A program made the position numbers and the translations under genes. This document shows, piece after piece, positions 1,670 to 10,352 of a stretch of 10,359 nucleotides of DNA. The notes under the pieces were generated by a model. That model saw nothing but the letters and a program-made list of their open reading frames with translations, was not told the origin of the DNA and ran no database searches. Position 1 is the stretch's first letter. The number at the start of each line of letters is the position of its first letter. The DNA is from a virus (taxonomy: Duplodnaviria; Heunggongvirae; Uroviricota; Caudoviricetes): the IMG/VR virus record IMGVR_UViG_3300000357_000164, one strand, 5' to 3'.

Positions 1670-2638
1670 CTAAATACGCACTTTAAGATAAGTCAGCCCC
1701 GGATGAAGCCAGTAAGCCGGCACTTTTTTAAAGGGTGGAGTATTAAAATCACGAAGAAGAGCCTCCCGCACAATTGCATCCTTATCAGCACCACTGGCCA
1801 GCGCTTCAATCTCAGCGGCTACCTGAAGATATNNNNNNNNNNNNNNNNNNNNNNNNNNNNNNNNNNNNNNNNNNNNNNNNNNNNNNNNNNNNNNNNNNNN
1901 NNNNNNNNNNNNNNNNNNNNNNNNNNNNNNNNNNNNNNNNNNNNNNNNNNNNNNNNNNNNNNNNNNNNNNNNNNNNNNNNNNNNNNNNNNNNNNNNNNNN
2001 NNNNNNNNNNNNNNNNNNNNNNNNNNNNNNNNTGAGATGGTTATTTTCCCAGCATCACCGGATACAACAAAGGATGGCCGGTTACACTCCCATTCCGGGT
2101 CACTGAAATTATCATTATGAATACTGAAACACTCTGCGAGATTTCTGCTCATCACTTTCCGACAATAATCGTCAAACGCAGCAAACTGCTTTTCATCGCC
2201 AGAAGGCACCAATATCGACCATTTCTTATTCAGCTCAACGACGTAGCTCTCCAGTTTTTCAATACGTGATTCAACATCATCTTTTTCTGACCGCAGTGTT
2301 GACGGCGGCATCTTCAGAGAACAAGTAATTCTTCCCGGTAGCTTTCCTTTGTAGGTTATCAACACATCCTGCGCCTCTAAAATTACGGGGCGCTTTTCCG
2401 GCAACGGTTCGTTCCATTCACATAACCCGGCAGCAACATCCATGAAAAACTGCTTCGCCTGCTTTTTCGCCTCAGCTTCGTAAAACTCCAGCGTGGCACC
2501 TTCAGTACGGTCAAGACTAATCGCCACATCTGGCAACAACAGCGACGCTTGCCCGTCACCTTCCGACTTCACAGTAACAGTAACCTTATCCCCGTAATTA
2601 TTTATCCCCTTAACAACCAGTTCATATTTTTTATTCAT
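1670..2638 (-). CDS. hypothetical protein (~322 aa) inserted between holin and endolysin; no recognisable family from sequence alone
   Basis: Long minus-strand ORF starting at ATG 2638 (the track starts at the in-frame GTG 2641). An SD (GGGGAGAG) lies inside the 3' end of the holin gene, and the holin stop TAA (2643-2645) is 4 nt from this ATG. Soluble-looking protein with a coiled-coil-like stretch (RSEKDDVESRIEKLESYVVELNKKW). The interior 1833-2032 is masked (200 N), so continuity of the N-terminal 200 aa with the C-terminal 54 aa is unproven. Stop TAG at 1670-1672, 36 nt before the endolysin ATG. Confidence 0.6.
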   Translation of the reverse strand: MNKKYELVVKGINNYGDKVTVTVKSEGDGQASLLLPDVAISLDRTEGATLEFYEAEAKKQAKQFFMDVAAGLCEWNEPLPEKRPVILEAQDVLITYKGKLPGRITCSLKMPPSTLRSEKDDVESRIEKLESYVVELNKKWSILVPSGDEKQFAAFDDYCRKVMSRNLAECFSIHNDNFSDPEWECNRPSFVVSGDAGKITISXXXXXXXXXXXXXXXXXXXXXXXXXXXXXXXXXXXXXXXXXXXXXXXXXXXXXXXXXXXXXXXXXXXYLQVAAEIEALASGADKDAIVREALLRDFNTPPFKKVPAYWLHPGLTYLKVRI

Positions 2639-3180: not shown

Positions 3181-3315
3181 GGGATTTTCTCGTTGAAAGG
3201 TGTTGTCAAGAAAGTGACTACGGAATNNNNNNNNNNNNNNNNNNNNNNNNNNNNNNNNNNNNNNNNNNNNNNNNNNNNNNNNNNNNNNNNNNNNNNNNNN
3301 NNNNNNNNNNNNNNN

Positions 3316-3479
3316 TCGGGTTTGCTTCCGGCTGACTGACTGGCGCTGATTCTCTCAGCGGCCCTTTTATCAATCTGCCTGCGCCAGAAATCGCGCACTG
3401 CCCTGTACCCACCCGAAAGAAGATACATAACACAGACTGCCATACAGAAGTACAGCATTACCTGATGAATAAATGTCAT
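3316..3479 (-). CDS. small membrane protein, 3' end lost in masked block (partial)
   Basis: ATG at 3479. N-terminus MTFIHQVMLYFCMAVCVMYLLSGGYRAVRDFWRRQIDKRAAERISASQSAGSKP has one TM helix followed by a basic segment. The ORF runs into the N block 3227-3315, so the true stop is unknown; the in-frame continuation after the block overlaps the acidic ORF and is probably not real. Confidence 0.4.
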
Positions 3480-3577
3480 AATTTCTTACCGTTATGGTTG
3501 ACAATGAGAACTGTTTTCATTTAGAAATGATTGATGTCGAAAGCATCTTTTCTTTACATTCTCCATTGGGATTACCT

Positions 3578-3615
3578 CCGCCAGCTTCCATTCCTGCCGC
3601 TGGCGGCTTTTTTTA
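3578..3615 (+). terminator. intrinsic terminator-like hairpin oriented for plus-strand transcription
   Basis: Perfect 8-bp stem CCGCCAGC (3578-3585) / GCTGGCGG (3599-3606) with a 13-nt loop, followed on the plus strand by CTTTTTTTA. On the minus strand the hairpin is preceded, not followed, by the A/T run, so it is unidirectional (plus). It sits immediately 3' of the nanS-p stop. Confidence 0.5.
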
Positions 3616-5745
3616 TCATGCCGCGATGTCCGCGTTGTTCACTTCCACCTTCACACTGTCAATCAGCAGCGTATATGTCGCCGCCTTTGATATGCCTGTC
3701 AGTTGCAGTTTGTCCGCCGCCCCTGATGCCGGAGATTTCACCAGTGTGAACGGCGTCCCCCGTTTCTCATCCAGTACCGGCGTCACCTGAATGCTGTTGT
3801 TTCCGGCAAACTCAAAAGCCAGTGTGTGCCATCCGTTATCAAAGACCCCGAACGTTTCCAGCTTCGCATTCGGCTTCTTGTGGTGCATCGCGTTCAGGTT
3901 CGTCGCATCCGTCTGCAGAAAGAAGGACATCAGCATGTCGTTGCCTTCCTCTGCCAGCGTCACTCCCTCNNNNNNNNNNNNNNNNNNNNNNNNNNNNNNN
4001 NNNNNNNNNNNNNNNNNNNNNNNNNNNNNNNNNNNNNNNNNNNNNNNNNNNNNNNNNNNNNNAACTGCCAGTAAATGCCCAGGGCAAACTGATTCGGCAC
4101 CAGTGAACCCGGCAACTTAAACCGTACGCTCACACGTCCCCCCTTCTTCAGTAACTCCACTCCCTGTCCGGCTGCATCATGCTCCAGAAACCAGATGTGG
4201 TTTTCCGGTTTATTCAGTTGCAGGGCCTTACCTCCCGTAGCCCCCGCATCACTGACCACCGCTTCAGCAATGTTTTTGTTAACATTGTCTCCGCTCGCCG
4301 GTTTGTGATAATAGCGCCAGCCCTGTGATGCCAGGTCTTCGCCGGACGCCAGCAGACTCATCAGGGTTCGGTTACTGACCGGGGCTTCCGGCTCTCTCTC
4401 CGTACCTTCACCGGAAGGTCCGGTGGGCTTCACCGTATCAGGCTGTTTTCCGGTAATGAATTCAGCGTTTCTCCCGGCATGCACAAGAATCGCCGTTGCC
4501 AGACGGTCGGAAATAATCCCACGACGTGCCCATGATCCAAAATGCGTTTTACGGTCAGCCGTCGTCCAGGTTTTGGCGTCCGTTCGACCACCGGCTCCGT
4601 AATACCCAATATCCGCAACATCCGGATCTTCTGACGGCTCGTTGGTACCCACATTTCGCCCGTTTTCATCCGTCATAAACGGCACAAAGAAGNNNNNNNN
4701 NNNNNNNNNNNNNNNNNNNNNNNNNNNNNNNNNNNNNNNNNNNNNNNNNNNNNNNNNNNNNNNNNNNNNNNNNNNNNNNNNNNNNNNNNNNTGCGGATTT
4801 CGTCTTGTATGCACCATACACCGCATCGTATTGCGAAGAATAAGTCTGCTTCCAGTAGTAGGTCGTGTCGCCACAAATCCAGGGAACCGATGACGGAGAG
4901 CCCCCGAGACACTGACCTCCGAATTCCGACAGGTCAGAACGATATTTTTCCACCATGGAATCAAACAGCCCCGGCTGGGTGGCGTATGCACCCTGTTTCA
5001 AATCAAACTCGCCCTGCATCCAGACCACTGCAAGCAGAATATTTTTAGGGTTGGCCTTCAGTGCGGCCTGAGTACGGGTAAGCAGGTCCTTGTACAGTGG
5101 CTTATCTACACCCCAGCGTGCCGAGGTCTCGCTTGCGCCGGTGGATTCGCTGAAGGTACCTTCATCGCCCGCCAAAAATGCAGAACCACCACGGCAGCAC
5201 GGAACCAGAAGAATACCGGCATTCGCCGGAATAAACGGCAACAATTTCTTCGCGATATGTAATCCCTGCCCCACGCATCCATACTGAGCTGCACTGGCTT
5301 TCGGGTGTGAAAACTTACTCAAATCCTGAACATCATGCAGGCAGTGGTCCGCAGGAATAATGTCATTGTAGTTACAGAACGCACCACCCGGCGTGACAGT
5401 GCTGCGACGCGCCAGCTGTTTAATACGCGGGTCCGGACGGTCATATGTCTCCGGCAGCGGAAGCCCTTCACCATACGCCATACCGTTTGACTGCCCGGCC
5501 AGGGCAACAACAAAGTAATACTCCGGGTTGCTGGTGGTGCTGATAACTGCGCCTTCTCCATCCGACGGCTTCACCACCACAGGTGTGGTGACATCACCTT
5601 CCGCCGCAATGGCCTGCATCAGGGTATAAGGCGTGATGGCCACCGGACTGCCAAATGGCTGCCACCCCTCCTTCAGTTTTTGTGTCAGTCGTTTCGCAAG
5701 GTCTGACGGCGATGCCGCCCTGACAACATCATAGTGTTTAAATGC
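3616..5745 (-). CDS. nanS-p: NanS-p-type phage sialate 9-O-acetylesterase (SASA/DUF303 esterase domain with C-terminal lectin-like region), interrupted by masked blocks
   Basis: Large minus-strand coding region with the SASA esterase GQSN motif (VALAGQSNGMAYGEG) and surrounding similarity to prophage NanS-p/YjhS-like esterases as recalled. The N-terminal part (AFKHYDVVRAASPSDLAKRLTQKLKEGWQPFGSPVA) resembles the DUF1737 region. The start lies inside N block 5746-5849. The coding frame differs on each side of N blocks 4693-4791 and 3970-4062 (three track ORFs: 4666..5964, 3960..4991, 3616..3963). Stop TGA at 3616-3618. Confidence 0.8.
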
Positions 5746-6017
5746 NNNNNNNNNNNNNNNNNNNNNNNNNNNNNNNNNNNNNNNNNNNNNNNNNNNNNNN
5801 NNNNNNNNNNNNNNNNNNNNNNNNNNNNNNNNNNNNNNNNNNNNNNNNNATTCTTTAAAATACCTGACATGTAATACAGAAAAAACACAAAACCATACCT
5901 TAAATAAAAACCTCATCATCAAGCAGATATGCATGGATAAACTACAAGACGAGATATAAACCACCCTGCATTTAAATAAACAATAAACAACATCAGAAAA
6001 ATAATTCTGCTCTATGG

Positions 6018-6044
6018 TTTACATTCAAAAATATCATTTATACT
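6018..6044 (+). promoter_or_regulatory. sigma70-like promoter candidate (TTTACA-15 nt-TATACT) upstream of plus-strand small ORF
   Basis: -35-like TTTACA at 6018-6023 and -10-like TATACT at 6039-6044, in very AT-rich DNA about 40 nt upstream of ATG 6085. The spacer is 15 nt, which is short, so this is a hexamer match only. Confidence 0.35.
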
Positions 6045-6084
6045 TTTCAGAACATCACCAGCAAGACATAAACAAGGAAACTAA

Positions 6085-6245
6085 ATGAAGTGGATTGTGA
6101 TTGATACAGTTATCCAGCCATCATGCGGAATATCTTTTTCAGTCATATGGAGTAAAATAAAATTAATAATCTGGTATCAATCGGATGCTTTCTTACCTCC
6201 TGAAAGTATATTTACACTGACTCACACAGGTATCATGCTCAATAA
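6085..6245 (+). CDS. small hypothetical protein on the strand opposite the late operon (partial; runs into masked block)
   Basis: ATG at 6085 with SD AAGGA (6074-6078, 6-nt spacer). Translation [53 protein letters not shown]... continues into N block 6246-6336; the track ORF ends at 6348. AT-rich codon usage with 5 ATA codons in 53. Confidence 0.4.
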
Positions 6246-6475
6246 NNNNNNNNNNNNNNNNNNNNNNNNNNNNNNNNNNNNNNNNNNNNNNNNNNNNNNN
6301 NNNNNNNNNNNNNNNNNNNNNNNNNNNNNNNNNNNNTGCTACCTGTAACCATTTACAACGTAGCACCATTCAATAAAACATTCTGGAATTTAATCAAAAA
6401 CAGCCAGGAATGTCCTACAAATACAGATAACGTATTGAATGAATGCTTTAATAACCGTTGCACTCTGCAAATATG

Positions 6476-6509
6476 TCCTTATGGACTAAAACAACAAAGT
6501 CCATAAGGA
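6476..6509. repeat. perfect 12-bp inverted repeat with 10-nt spacer (hairpin or palindromic binding site)
   Basis: TCCTTATGGACT (6476-6487) and AGTCCATAAGGA (6498-6509) are exact reverse complements; spacer AAAACAACAA. No clean U-tract follows on either strand. Confidence 0.6.
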
Positions 6510-6521
6510 GTTTACTCACAT

Positions 6522-6562
6522 CTGACAAAATCAATATAAACAGCCCCTCCGGAGAGGGGCTG
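6522..6562 (-). terminator. rho-independent terminator for minus-strand transcription
   Basis: Perfect 9-bp GC-rich stem CAGCCCCTC (6541-6549) / GAGGGGCTG (6554-6562) with a 4-nt loop. On the minus strand the hairpin is followed by TTTATATTGATTTTG (complement of 6522-6540). Confidence 0.55.
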
Positions 6563-6883
6563 GAGAGTGGCGCTATGTGCCATTGCATGGTGCCGGGTGC
6601 CTCCCGGTGAATTCAGTACCAGCACCTGAATCCGCGATTATCCCATATACCTACTCGCTGATTGCCCCTCCGCACNNNNNNNNNNNNNNNNNNNNNNNNN
6701 NNNNNNNNNNNNNNNNNNNNNNNNNNNNNNNNNNNNNNNNNNNNNNNNNNNNNNNNNNNNNNNNNNNNNNNNNNNNNNNNNNNNNNNNNNNNNNNNNNNN
6801 NNNNNNNNCCCCGCAAACCAGACAACAGTCAACCGCCTGAATTGTGAAGTATTTAAAAATTTCTCCCGCTAACTGATACCCGG

Positions 6884-7404: not shown

Positions 7405-7517
7405 TACTTAACAGAACTTTTATTTTTGACAAACATAAAATATTTTCAACAATATCCTGAGCCAGGTATATTTCAGTATAAGGCTCTGCCGGAAGGAATC
7501 TGGAAGAATGAATATAG

Positions 7518-7591
7518 CGCGCTGTACTGGATTCGAACCAGTGACCGATTGCTTAGAAGGCAATTGCTCTGTCCGGCTGAGCTAACAACGC
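7518..7591 (-). tRNA. tRNA-Arg (anticodon UCU), phage-borne; 3' CCA not encoded
   Basis: Minus-strand sequence GCGTTGTTAGCTCAGCCGGACAGAGCAATTGCCTTCTAAGCAATCGGTCACTGGTTCGAATCCAGTACAGCGCG folds as a cloverleaf: 7-bp acceptor stem with one G-U, D arm GCTC/GAGC, anticodon loop CTTCTAA, T arm with GGTTCGAATCC. It resembles E. coli argU-type tRNA. The discriminator is followed by CTA rather than CCA. Confidence 0.85.
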
Positions 7592-7691: not shown

Positions 7692-7767
7692 TGGTGGCCC
7701 TTGCTGGATTTGAACCAGCGACCTGGCGATTATGAGTCGCTCGCTCTCACCACTGAGCTAAAGGGCC
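7692..7767 (-). tRNA. tRNA-Ile2-like (anticodon CAU, ileX/ileZ-type; could formally be Met)
   Basis: Minus-strand sequence GGCCCTTTAGCTCAGTGGTGAGAGCGAGCGACTCATAATCGCCAGGTCGCTGGTTCAAATCCAGCAAGGGCCACCA (76 nt, CCA encoded) is near-identical in architecture to E. coli ileX tRNA as recalled. Anticodon loop CTCATAA. Confidence 0.88.
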
Positions 7768-7883
7768 GGGAGCAGAATAATAACNNNNNNNNNNNNNNNN
7801 NNNNNNNNNNNNNNNNNNNNNNNNNNNNNNNNNNNNNNNNNNNNNNNNNNNNNNNNNNNNNNNNNNNNNNNNNATTAATTCCG

Positions 7884-7909
7884 CAATAAAAAACCCGCTC
7901 GGCGGCGGG
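7884..7909 (-). terminator. tR'-like intrinsic terminator downstream of late promoter
   Basis: Minus-strand hairpin CCCGC-CGCCGA-GCGGG (7894-7909) followed by TTTTTTAT (complement of 7886-7893). It lies about 45-65 nt downstream of the pR'-like promoter, as for lambdoid pR'/tR' units. Confidence 0.7.
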
Positions 7910-7958
7910 TTGTAGAAACTCTTCTAACGTCAGGCATAAAAAGCCCATTGTTATGACG

Positions 7959-7986
7959 AATTTACCACAGATTCCGGAAAAATCAA
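7959..7986 (-). promoter_or_regulatory. pR'-like late promoter (putative Q-utilisation region)
   Basis: On the minus strand: -35 TTGATT (7981-7986), 16-nt spacer, -10 TAAATT (7959-7964). The -10 hexamer is the same as lambda pR' as recalled. Located immediately after the Q stop codon (7992-7994) and upstream of the tR'-like hairpin. Confidence 0.55.
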
Positions 7987-7991
7987 CCTTG

Positions 7992-8971
7992 TTACCTAGT
8001 TACCTTTTTTAACTGCCGCTCAGCCCATGCTTCTTCAATATCAAACCGGGTCACCAGCGCATCATAGAATTTCTTAACTGTTTTTTCCCATGACGCGCGT
8101 GTTATCTGGTTTGTCACCTCGCATATAGCATTAAATGCCTCCGTTGATGGTAGTCTTTCATAGCCACGACCACCACAACGCTGGCAGTCTCTGATAACAG
8201 GCATACCACGTTTTACCGACTCTTCACGATGAATGGCGACACCACGCCCACGGCAATCCTTACAGGCGGTGGAAACCTCACCCTTTCCGCCACACTCNNN
8301 NNNNNNNNNNNNNNNNNNNNNNNNNNNNNNNNNNNNNNNNNNNNNNNNNNNNNNNNNNNNNNNNNNNNNNNNNNNNNNNNNNNNNNNNNNNNNNNNNNNN
8401 NNNNNNNNNNNNNNNNNNNNNNNNNNNAAGACGAATACACACCTTTCGTACACTTTGCCCATACCGGCGGCTTACCATCCGGATACTGGACCTTGTTTGT
8501 AAAAACTACGCTTTCAATAAATTTTTCCCCATAGCAACAAGGGCACTGCTTTTTACTCGCTGCGCTGCGGGCATAATCCTCAAAAGCGTACGAAGCCATA
8601 ATGCGCATCACTACCGGTTTTATTTCTGCCGGAAGTTTTCTCAACGCCGCCACANNNNNNNNNNNNNNNNNNNNNNNNNNNNNNNNNNNNNNNNNNNNNN
8701 NNNNNNNNNNNNNNNNNNNNNNNNNNNNNNNNNNNNNNNNNNNNNNNNNNNNNNNNNNNNNNNNNNNNNNNGTTGCCCGCGCCCTGTCATTCATACTGAT
8801 GCCCATTTTCCCCAGGAACGCAGAAAAACCCATCTCAGCCCGATTCTGTGTCATGCCCTGCGCGGCCATCACATCAGTGATACTCAGCGCATCTTTTGAC
8901 GTTGAGGCCGATGCATCGGTCAGGCCAGGGGATTTTGGGGAGTAGTATTTCGGTAAATCTTCCAGTTTCAT
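7992..8971 (-). CDS. Q: late-gene antiterminator Q (lambda Q family), interrupted by two masked blocks with an apparent frame change
   Basis: N-terminus MKLEDLPKYYSPKSPGLTDASASTSKDALSITDVMAAQGMTQNRAEMGFSAFLGK parallels lambda Q (MRLESVAKFHSPKSPMMSDSPRATASDSLSGTDVMAAMGMAQSQ...). Mid-region MASYAFEDYARSAASKKQ matches LATFAYADYCRSAATPGA. The C-terminal part in a different frame (7992..8297: CKDCRGRGVAI...DCQRCGGRGYERLPS...WEKTVKKFYDALV...KKVTR) matches the lambda Q zinc-finger and C-terminus. ATG at 8971 with an AGG-containing SD. Confidence 0.8.
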
Positions 8972-8985
8972 TTTTTGACCTGCTC

Positions 8986-9348
8986 TTAATGCATTATGGG
9001 GTAAATCTTCACCCCCAGACGTCCACCAGATACTGGCTGACCACGAACGATATTGATTTCATCAAACTGCTCATCGTCCATTAACACTCCCGCATGCGTC
9101 AGCGCATCCAGCGGTGCTTTCAGGATATTGTCCAGGTCGCGACGACGCTTATCCGGTGGCTCTGCAATCACCTTTATCGCCAGCCTTCCGGACAGGTTTA
9201 ATTTCAGCCGCTGCTGGCGAACAATTAGCGCCACATCACGGCGATAACGCTTTCCGGCCTCCGAGATGAAATACGTATTGCCATGACGTCGCCAGTAGGT
9301 ATTCACCGTCGGCGGGTAAGGCAAAACAAATTCTATGCGTTCAGTCAT
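8986..9348 (-). CDS. rusA: RusA-family Holliday junction resolvase (crossover junction endodeoxyribonuclease)
   Basis: 120-aa ORF with RusA hallmarks (LPYPPTVNTYWRRHG..., PDKRRRDLDNILKAPLDALTHAGVLMDDEQ, GGRLGVKI) matching E. coli RusA as recalled. ATG 9348 directly abuts the stop (TGA 9349-9351) of the upstream gene. Confidence 0.9.
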   Translation of the reverse strand: MTERIEFVLPYPPTVNTYWRRHGNTYFISEAGKRYRRDVALIVRQQRLKLNLSGRLAIKVIAEPPDKRRRDLDNILKAPLDALTHAGVLMDDEQFDEINIVRGQPVSGGRLGVKIYPIMH

Positions 9349-9686: not shown

Positions 9687-10352
9687 CTAACGTCTTTTCC
9701 TGGAGTGGGGGCTGTTGCTGGTGGACGTGNNNNNNNNNNNNNNNNNNNNNNNNNNNNNNNNNNNNNNNNNNNNNNNNNNNNNNNNNNNNNNNNNNNNNNN
9801 NNNNNNNNNNNNNNNNNNNNNNNNNNNNNNNNNNNNNNNNNTCAGTATGCTGGTGGCAGTCTGTTCTCCCGGTACGATGTCACTCTCACGGTATACGGAG
9901 CGGATTTTTTCCACCGGTAATCCCAGTGAACGACACAATACAGACTCCGGAAGCGCATCAGCCACCTGATTGCAGACCGCCCACCAGGATAATTCGGCCA
10001 GCGATAACTCCCTCTCCTGCGTACCGCTGATTGCGTGACGGATGNNNNNNNNNNNNNNNNNNNNNNNNNNNNNNNNNNNNNNNNNNNNNNNNNNNNNNNN
10101 NNNNNNNNNNNNNNNNNNNNNNNNNNNNNNNNNNNNTGCTGACAAGTTTTGGTGAGCAAGTTGCTCAAGTGATTCTGAGGTCTGGTCACACAACTGGTTG
10201 TCGCAGTGCCAGCACAACACCATTGCGCCGGTACCATAACGGTGAATGACGGTTTCACTGTGGTGATAATCACCGTGTGGCCACTGGCAGGATTTAATAT
10301 GGCGCAACAGCCAGTCAGACAGTGCACCAGCGCCGCCAGCAGCACGAATCAC
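9687..10352 (-). CDS. nin-region ORF(s), partial and interrupted by two masked blocks; may be two genes
   Basis: Open minus-strand frame with Cys/His-rich segment HIKSCQWPHGDYHHSETVIHRYGTGAMVLCWHCDNQLCDQ, a middle segment ...ELSLAELSWWAVCNQVADALPESVLCRSLGLPVEK..., and a basic C-terminus TSTSNSPHSRKRR (NinE-like tail). N blocks 9730-9841 and 10045-10136 hide the junctions. The other frames have shadow-like composition. The frame is still open at the window edge, so the start may lie beyond it. Confidence 0.35.
   Translation of the reverse strand: MIRAAGGAGALSDWLLRHIKSCQWPHGDYHHSETVIHRYGTGAMVLCWHCDNQLCDQTSESLEQLAHQNLSAXXXXXXXXXXXXXXXXXXXXXXXXXXXXXXXIRHAISGTQERELSLAELSWWAVCNQVADALPESVLCRSLGLPVEKIRSVYRESDIVPGEQTATSILXXXXXXXXXXXXXXXXXXXXXXXXXXXXXXXXXXXXXXTSTSNSPHSRKRR

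Follow-up and report, generated by a model that had tools for sequence, protein, structure and literature searches.

The window, i.e., the whole 10,359-nt stretch of DNA that was analysed, carries on its minus strand a gene for a Q-type antitermination protein (Table 1). Upstream of this gene are rusA and a DUF968 gene, while tRNA genes, accessory genes and a holin-lysozyme cassette lie downstream. Translation of the window places the start of the Q gene at an ATG at position 8971. From this codon, frame 0 reads MKLEDLPKYYSPKSP...RSAASKKQCPCCYGEKF...AKCTKGVYSS until it enters the N block at 8298-8427. Beyond the block, the sensible reading is that of frame 2, ECGGKGEVSTACKDCRGRG...CQRCGGRGYERLP...KVTR*, which terminates at a stop codon at 7994-7992, and the list of open reading frames is split correspondingly (8213..8971 and 7992..8462). 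The original prediction placed the N-terminal and central parts of the protein in one frame and the zinc-finger and C-terminal parts in another across this block, and minus-strand translation of the window as given confirmed this. In unmasked relatives, the same gene is a single ORF of 822 nt, or 273 codons, in one frame. These relatives are the exact-match genomes NT1F25 and EcPF5, where the product is annotated as "antitermination protein" (WP_032298690.1 and WP_001545909.1, respectively), and phage mEp460_ev081, where it is annotated as "Phage antitermination protein Q". It is very probable that the locus encodes an intact 273-aa antiterminator of the lambda Q family, of the long phi80/QuuQ type with a 68-aa module, and that the frame change is an artefact.

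Table 1. Positions of the features discussed, with strand and supporting evidence
Feature	Position in window	Strand	Evidence or remark
Q antiterminator CDS, long phi80-type	7992..8971	minus	Pfam PF03589 and 7UBM_Q matches; real length 822 nt, appears as 980 nt
N-terminal region, aa 1-61, homologous to the nozzle-forming segment of lambda Q	8789..8971	minus	alignment with lambda Q 1-113
Insert of 68 aa, aa 114-181, predicted second zinc ribbon	8271..8554	minus	alignment boundaries, Cys conservation, strands of the model
Lambda-type zinc ribbon ("Q arm"), aa 182-220, CKDCRGRG...CQRCGGRG	8154..8270	minus	Cys spacing as in lambda Q
C-terminal Q body, aa 221-273, HTH region and C-terminal helix	7995..8153	minus	homology with lambda Q 155-207
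PR'-like late promoter and Q loading site, predicted	7944..7986	minus	read by eye, compared with lambda and phi80
Intrinsic terminator, tR'-like	7886..7911	minus	7-bp G+C-rich stem and T tract; hairpin in the MFE fold
Padded N block	8298-8427	minus	130 N = 50 real nt, aa 156-172, YWEEWKKV(K/R)EVVKVACP
Padded N block	8655-8771	minus	117 N = 39 real nt, aa 67-80, TELLADYALSRCDR; frame-neutral
N blocks of the window	1833-2032, 3227-3315, 3970-4062, 4693-4791, 5746-5849, 6246-6336
N blocks of the window, continued	6676-6808, 7785-7873, 8298-8427, 8655-8771, 9730-9841, 10045-10136

The Pfam scan assigns the product to PF03589 (Antiterm; E value 6e-55; 183.8 bits against a cut-off of 26.7) over two stretches, and PF03589 is the family of lambda Q (PMC9388147). 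The best phmmer match among PDB chains is lambda Q itself (7UBM_Q/7UBN; E value 3.6e-40), the lambda Q chains 7UBM, 4MO1 and 7UBJ ranging from 3.6e-40 to 2.3e-20. The two sequences are collinear, aa 1-113 with residues 1-113 of lambda Q and aa 182-273 with its residues 116-207. Between these blocks phmmer leaves aa 114-181 unaligned, which confirms the claim that a Cys-containing stretch at this position lacks a counterpart in lambda Q. The same Pfam scan found no match at E <= 1 to the families of Q21 (PF06530) and Q82 (PF06323), which fill the same role at the same place in the genomes of lambdoid phages but have unrelated folds (PMC9388147). An AlphaFold model built from 108 homologues has a mean pLDDT of 81.6, and a Foldseek search of the PDB returned eight significant matches, all of them lambda Q chains (E values 3e-13 to 1e-6; target-normalised TM scores 0.61-0.78).

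Each of the segments shared with lambda Q retains its characteristic features. Residues 1-44 are nearly motif-identical to the lambda Q N-terminus, and the low pLDDT of aa 1-25 is consistent with disorder in the free protein. The C-terminal body is modelled with helices at 223-233 and 239-272 (pLDDT about 90). The residues C184, C187, C210, and C213 correspond to C118, C121, C144, and C147 of lambda Q, with identical spacing, and are invariant in the 108 homologues; by its sequence, the segment is a Cys4 ribbon. The product is a Q protein of an already known kind, a routine, annotated and widely distributed antiterminator, here of a Qin/phi80-like prophage.

The insert follows the body helix that ends in ...YARSAAS and precedes the lambda-type ribbon. 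It includes two CxxCxG-type knuckles, CPCCYGEKF (C117/C120) and CPECGGKG (C171/C174), which in the model sit at the base of a long beta-hairpin with a variable tip. In the 108 full-length homologues, C117, C120, C171, and C174 are conserved at 99-100% and C119 at 94%; C171 and C174 lie in or adjoin the 50 nt hidden by the N block. In the AlphaFold model, the 12-residue strands 125-136 and 159-170 pair as a hairpin (pLDDT 76-86), so that both knuckles would be brought together, as in a zinc ribbon. We consider it most likely, from the model and the conserved Cys residues, that the insert is a second ribbon, giving two zinc ribbons in tandem, and that it binds a second Zn ion. The original prediction had singled out the stretch from QCPCCYGEKF to AKCTKG. 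This segment is real, but only 5% of the 108 homologues retain the Cys of AKCTKG (C148), and that residue probably does not bind metal. The results of the phmmer search of PDB chains indicate that the second-ribbon module is absent from solved structures, and no description of it was found in the library of papers that was searched.

The origin of the insert might be sought in the neighbouring ribbon, as an insertion or a duplication in the zinc-finger region had been proposed. Insertion relative to lambda Q was borne out, an insert standing at the same site in phi80 Q and YdfT. For duplication, the insert matches the lambda-type ribbon in BLASTP with an E value of 8e-4 as a single comparison (0.083 for the K-12 protein), while an HMM of the lambda-type ribbon scores the inserts at about 8-22 bits. 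Because the similarity is confined to the CxxCxGxG knuckles in both cases, a duplication of the ribbon is plausible on the sequences but unproven. One homologue (P0004; 272 aa, 87% identical, 16 member sequences) has "SKNSA-LLSRKKF" in place of SKKQCPCCYGEKF, so that the first of the two knuckles of the insert is missing, apparently owing to a compensated local frameshift. Here the ribbon could be dispensable, or the prophage could be decaying.

The four knuckles could also be paired differently. In a DnaJ-like module, two zinc ions would be bound in an interleaved manner, by knuckles 1 and 4 and knuckles 2 and 3, rather than by the tandem pairs 1 and 2 and 3 and 4. The protein resembles the DnaJ Cys-rich domain (PF00684) in having four CxxCxGxG-type motifs, with 10 residues between knuckles 2 and 3, in weak profile matches over aa 162-218 to DnaJ_CXXCXGXG (29.1 bits, below the cut-off of 32.7) and TIGR02349 (28 bits against a cut-off of 377), and in a weak Foldseek match to DnaJA2 (E value 0.56). 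However, knuckles 3 and 4 coincide, with identical spacing, with the four Cys residues that form one Zn site in the solved structures of lambda Q, family members with a single ribbon possess knuckles 3 and 4 only, and the strand pairing of the model sets knuckle 1 beside knuckle 2. An interleaved module is, on balance, rather unlikely, and the likely pairing here is tandem, in contrast to DnaJ. DnaJ/Hsp40 was also considered as a family assignment and was rejected, both profile scores being below their cut-offs and the J domain being absent, as are the DnaJ C-terminal domains. The homologue P0037 has nevertheless been mislabelled "chaperone protein DnaJ" by one source.

The predicted tandem arrangement of ribbons is shared with Q proteins already on record. 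That of phi80 (NC_021190 gp58; 269 aa; "anti-termination protein Q-like") belongs to the same family and is likewise of the long type. An end-to-end alignment with the present protein gives 40% identity overall, and the insert of 66-68 aa in phi80 Q, at the same site, is nearly superimposable (CxCCxGxGF...VFTNKVxYPxGKPPxW...REVVxVxCxxCxGKG, followed by the lambda-type ribbon). The phi80 protein is cited as having been studied experimentally beside lambda Q (Guo and Roberts 2004, listed as ref. 18 in PMC9388147). In E. coli K-12, the Qin product YdfT/QuuQ (b1559; 250 aa) is of the same family and has, at the same site, an insert with two CxxCxGxG knuckles. The prophage neighbourhood is also the same, with DUF968/ydfU upstream and with dicB, ydfABC, and hokD in an element of this type. 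The K-12 protein is 44% identical and its insert is about 20 aa shorter, with a shorter hairpin tip; in Qin, ydfU and Q have no rusA between them. Lambda Q (207 aa; PDB: 4MO1, 7UBJ-7UBN) shares the nozzle N-terminus, the four-helix body with its HTH, one Cys4 ribbon and the C-terminal helix, at about 29-40% identity depending on how the alignment is counted, but has 2-4 residues in place of the 68-aa module.

With respect to its distribution, an exhaustive search of representatives at 50% identity matched 235 proteins. About 36 of 46 full-length representatives of 195-290 aa have an insert of 30-79 aa with two knuckles, while about 5 of the 46 have a lambda-like junction of 2-4 residues. Throughout the family representatives, the hairpin tip varies widely in length and sequence, whereas the knuckles and the flanking strands are conserved. 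The best 120 matches in a collection of 5.8 billion proteins are nearly all 260-277 aa long with precomputed PF03589 and PF00684 labels, and come from Escherichia, Salmonella, Klebsiella, Enterobacter, Citrobacter, Serratia, and Leclercia; the two closest clusters at 90% identity contain 3739 and 4648 member sequences. Among phage records, tblastn located long forms (714-828 nt) in phi80, ES18, Fels-1, mEp237, mEp021, phiEt88, and Stx2c phages, and the short form of 621 nt in lambda, P22, HK97, HK022, and HK620. Since some 36 of the 46 representatives carry the insert, the elongated Q is, by these counts, the usual form, and lambda Q is a minimal, single-ribbon minority variant. The textbook protein is in this respect the minimal form of its family, most members of which have a second zinc-ribbon hairpin that is predicted and as yet unseen in any structure. 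One still longer version of the same Q (P0001; 337 aa, 91% identical, a single sequence) comes from a 1.8-kb contig, and its extra length possibly reflects an upstream start call or a fusion.

These comparisons also bear on whether the gene is a recent mosaic, in which the N-terminal half of one Q was joined to the zinc finger and C-terminus of another, the Cys-rich stretch being a remnant of the junction. Lambdoid phages are mosaic, and the phmmer match to lambda Q falls into two blocks. However, the alignment to phi80 Q and to 108 homologues (260-277 aa) found in numerous genera of enterobacteria runs over the full length and takes in the insert, which is an old and conserved feature in most representative clusters of the family. 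Thus, a recent mosaic is very improbable. The earlier suggestion of a mosaic or a pseudogene found no support, given the continuous 273-codon ORF, to which phi80 Q and over 100 annotated homologues align from end to end. The original prediction had named, as grounds for its refutation, a single continuous ORF of ordinary Q length that aligns end to end with known Q proteins. This is largely what the relatives show, the length being ordinary for the long (phi80/QuuQ) form, though not for lambda Q.

The apparent break in the frame is explained by the N blocks. The window contains 12 runs of N, of 89-200 nt each. All 13 segments between and around them are matched exactly, and in the same order, in E. 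coli EcPF5, and every one of the 12 runs exceeds the corresponding EcPF5 sequence by 76-97 nt, so that the 10,359-nt window represents 9375 nt of real sequence. In E. coli NT1F25, the flanks are spaced by 50 nt at 8298-8427, 39 nt at 8655-8771 and 8 nt at 7785-7873. A megablast search of complete E. coli genomes with positions 7880-9100 yielded 2807 matching records; in each of the best 25, the unmasked bases are 100% identical and the 1221-nt query covers 1063 nt. With 50 nt in place of 130 N, the gene loses 80 bases, and since 80 mod 3 = 2, the shift between frame 0 and frame 2 is exactly cancelled. Comparison with these relatives identifies the frame change as a masking artefact in which the N runs are about 80 nt too long, and the same excess at all 12 blocks points to a masking convention rather than to biology. 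Hence the reservation in the original prediction that the masked block might not preserve the true length proved well founded. The frame change and the 980-nt span it described are present in the masked window, but they are a property of the masking and not of the genome, in which the CDS measures 822 nt. Because each run is 76-97 nt too long, arguments from frame or length across any N block of the window are invalid.

The bases under the N blocks are here taken from the exact-match relatives. For the 50 nt hidden at 8298-8427, these give, on the plus strand, CGGACAGGCAACTTTTACCACCTCC[T/C]TGACTTTTTTCCATTCTTCCCAGT. Residue 164, which lies inside the hidden 50 nt, is the sole difference between the NT1F25 and EcPF5 proteins; it is K or R depending on the relative, and both are alternatives for the window.

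A frameshifted pseudogene, with a real -1/+2 shift within 8298-8427, has in its favour the window as given, where the frame changes over the N block and frame 0 meets a stop at 8213. In the exact-match genomes, however, the 50 nt that replace the 130 N restore a single frame, the best 25 of the 2807 records have identical spacing, the padding recurs at all 12 blocks, and RefSeq lists an intact CDS without a pseudogene label. Neither the exact-match genomes nor the phage record contain a frameshift or premature stop, and a pseudogene is extremely improbable. Any expression of the gene would be in a prophage context that may be defective. That the hidden bases truly number 130, with 80 nt lacking any counterpart in relatives, has the length of the N run in its favour and deserves next to no credence against an excess of about 80 nt that the intergenic blocks share.

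The intact gene is followed by a sequence resembling a PR' promoter. The minus-strand sequence that begins five bases beyond the stop is TTGATT (7986-7981), T, TTCCGGA (7979-7973), ATCTG, TGG-TAAATT (7967-7959), then CGTCAT as a 6-nt gap, AACAAT (7952-7947) and GGG, ending at 7944. These elements can be read as a -35 hexamer (TTGATT), a Q binding element (QBE) like that of phi80 (TTCCGGA), an extended -10 (TGG-TAAATT) and a -10-like pause element (AACAAT with GGG). The layout TTGATT-16-TAAATT-6-AACAATGGG, with the terminator next, about 60-66 nt downstream of the inferred start near 7952, is that of a Q-family promoter context as far as the sequence pattern goes. Lambda PR' (TTGACT-17-TAAATT-TGACTC-AACGAT-GGG) has the same order of -35, -10, 6-nt gap and AACxAT GGG. 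The phi80 record likewise annotates a pR' -35, a Q site TCGCGGA one base after the -35, a -10 TAGATT and a nearby terminator. As the QBE differs between phi80 (TCGCGGA) and the present locus (TTCCGGA), the promoter specificity of the two proteins is probably different. A consensus promoter scan did not report the PR'-like promoter, whose 8 of 12 hexamer matches are under its threshold. The PR' leader RNA matched no Rfam family, tRNAs and STnc100 being the only matches elsewhere in the region, and apart from the terminator hairpin its fold is no more stable than those of shuffled sequences (z -0.61).

By analogy with lambda Q (PMC9388147), the HTH of the body, together with the arm, would bind the QBE that lies between the -35 and the -10 of the PR'-like promoter, immediately beyond the stop codon of the Q gene itself. 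Contacts with sigma region 4, the flap and the beta' zinc-binding domain would then let the protein engage the sigma-dependent RNA polymerase complex paused at AACAAT. In lambda Q, residues 1-44 refold with NusA into a nozzle of the RNA exit channel (PMC9388147), and residues 110-112 and 117 touch the beta' zinc-binding domain. The conserved N-terminus (aa 1-44) might similarly refold with NusA into such a nozzle and block formation of the terminator hairpin. The tRNA genes and lysis genes would thereby be transcribed by polymerase that has passed the terminator at 7911-7886. Such antitermination activity is predicted from the homology and from the promoter layout.

What the second ribbon might contribute is more speculative. 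The insert emerges beside the positions equivalent to lambda Q residues 110-112 and 117, the beta' zinc-binding-domain contacts, and it is therefore conceivable, again by analogy with lambda Q, that it provides an added contact to DNA or RNA polymerase near the base of the arm. We tentatively propose, as a possibility that we hold to be on the unlikely side, that the second ribbon and its hypervariable tip form a functional specificity module, one that during loading might add a contact to promoter DNA or to RNA polymerase (sigma region 4 or the beta' zinc-binding domain). If this were true, loading of the long-form Q proteins, which make up most of the family, would differ from that of lambda Q, the one structurally characterised member.

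Several features around the Q gene were recorded in addition. Two tRNA genes on the minus strand, at 7692-7767 with the anticodon CAT and at 7517-7591 (Arg-TCT), are located directly downstream of the PR'-like terminator. The CAT tRNA is annotated as tRNA-Ile (Ile2) and was called Met by ARAGORN. We take this two-tRNA arrangement to resemble the ileZ-argN-argO genes of Stx phages. Between Q and the lysis cassette lie two cargo genes, which encode a 653-aa carbohydrate esterase of the SASA family (EcPF5 locus 3459-5420, minus strand; window ~3616-5964) and an IraM-like anti-adapter (EcPF5 locus 5681-6016, plus strand; window ~6085-6500). The left part of NT1F25 differs here, so the region is mosaic. 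A match to the STnc100 sRNA (Rfam, 132 bits against a gathering score of 47) occupies window ~6532-6818 on the minus strand, equivalent to EcPF5 locus 6042-6231 (minus strand), between the IraM-like and DUF3927 genes, and the match spans the N block at 6676-6808.

In mEp460_ev081, the name "Phage antitermination protein Q" is also given, probably in error, to the DUF968/YdfU-like gene upstream of rusA (4318-5367, minus strand). EcPF5 locus 1634-2560 (window ~1634-2641) has about 590 nt of unannotated sequence following the lysozyme gene and a truncated pseudogene of the YdfR family, and this part of the window includes the largest N block, in which 200 N stand for 122 nt.
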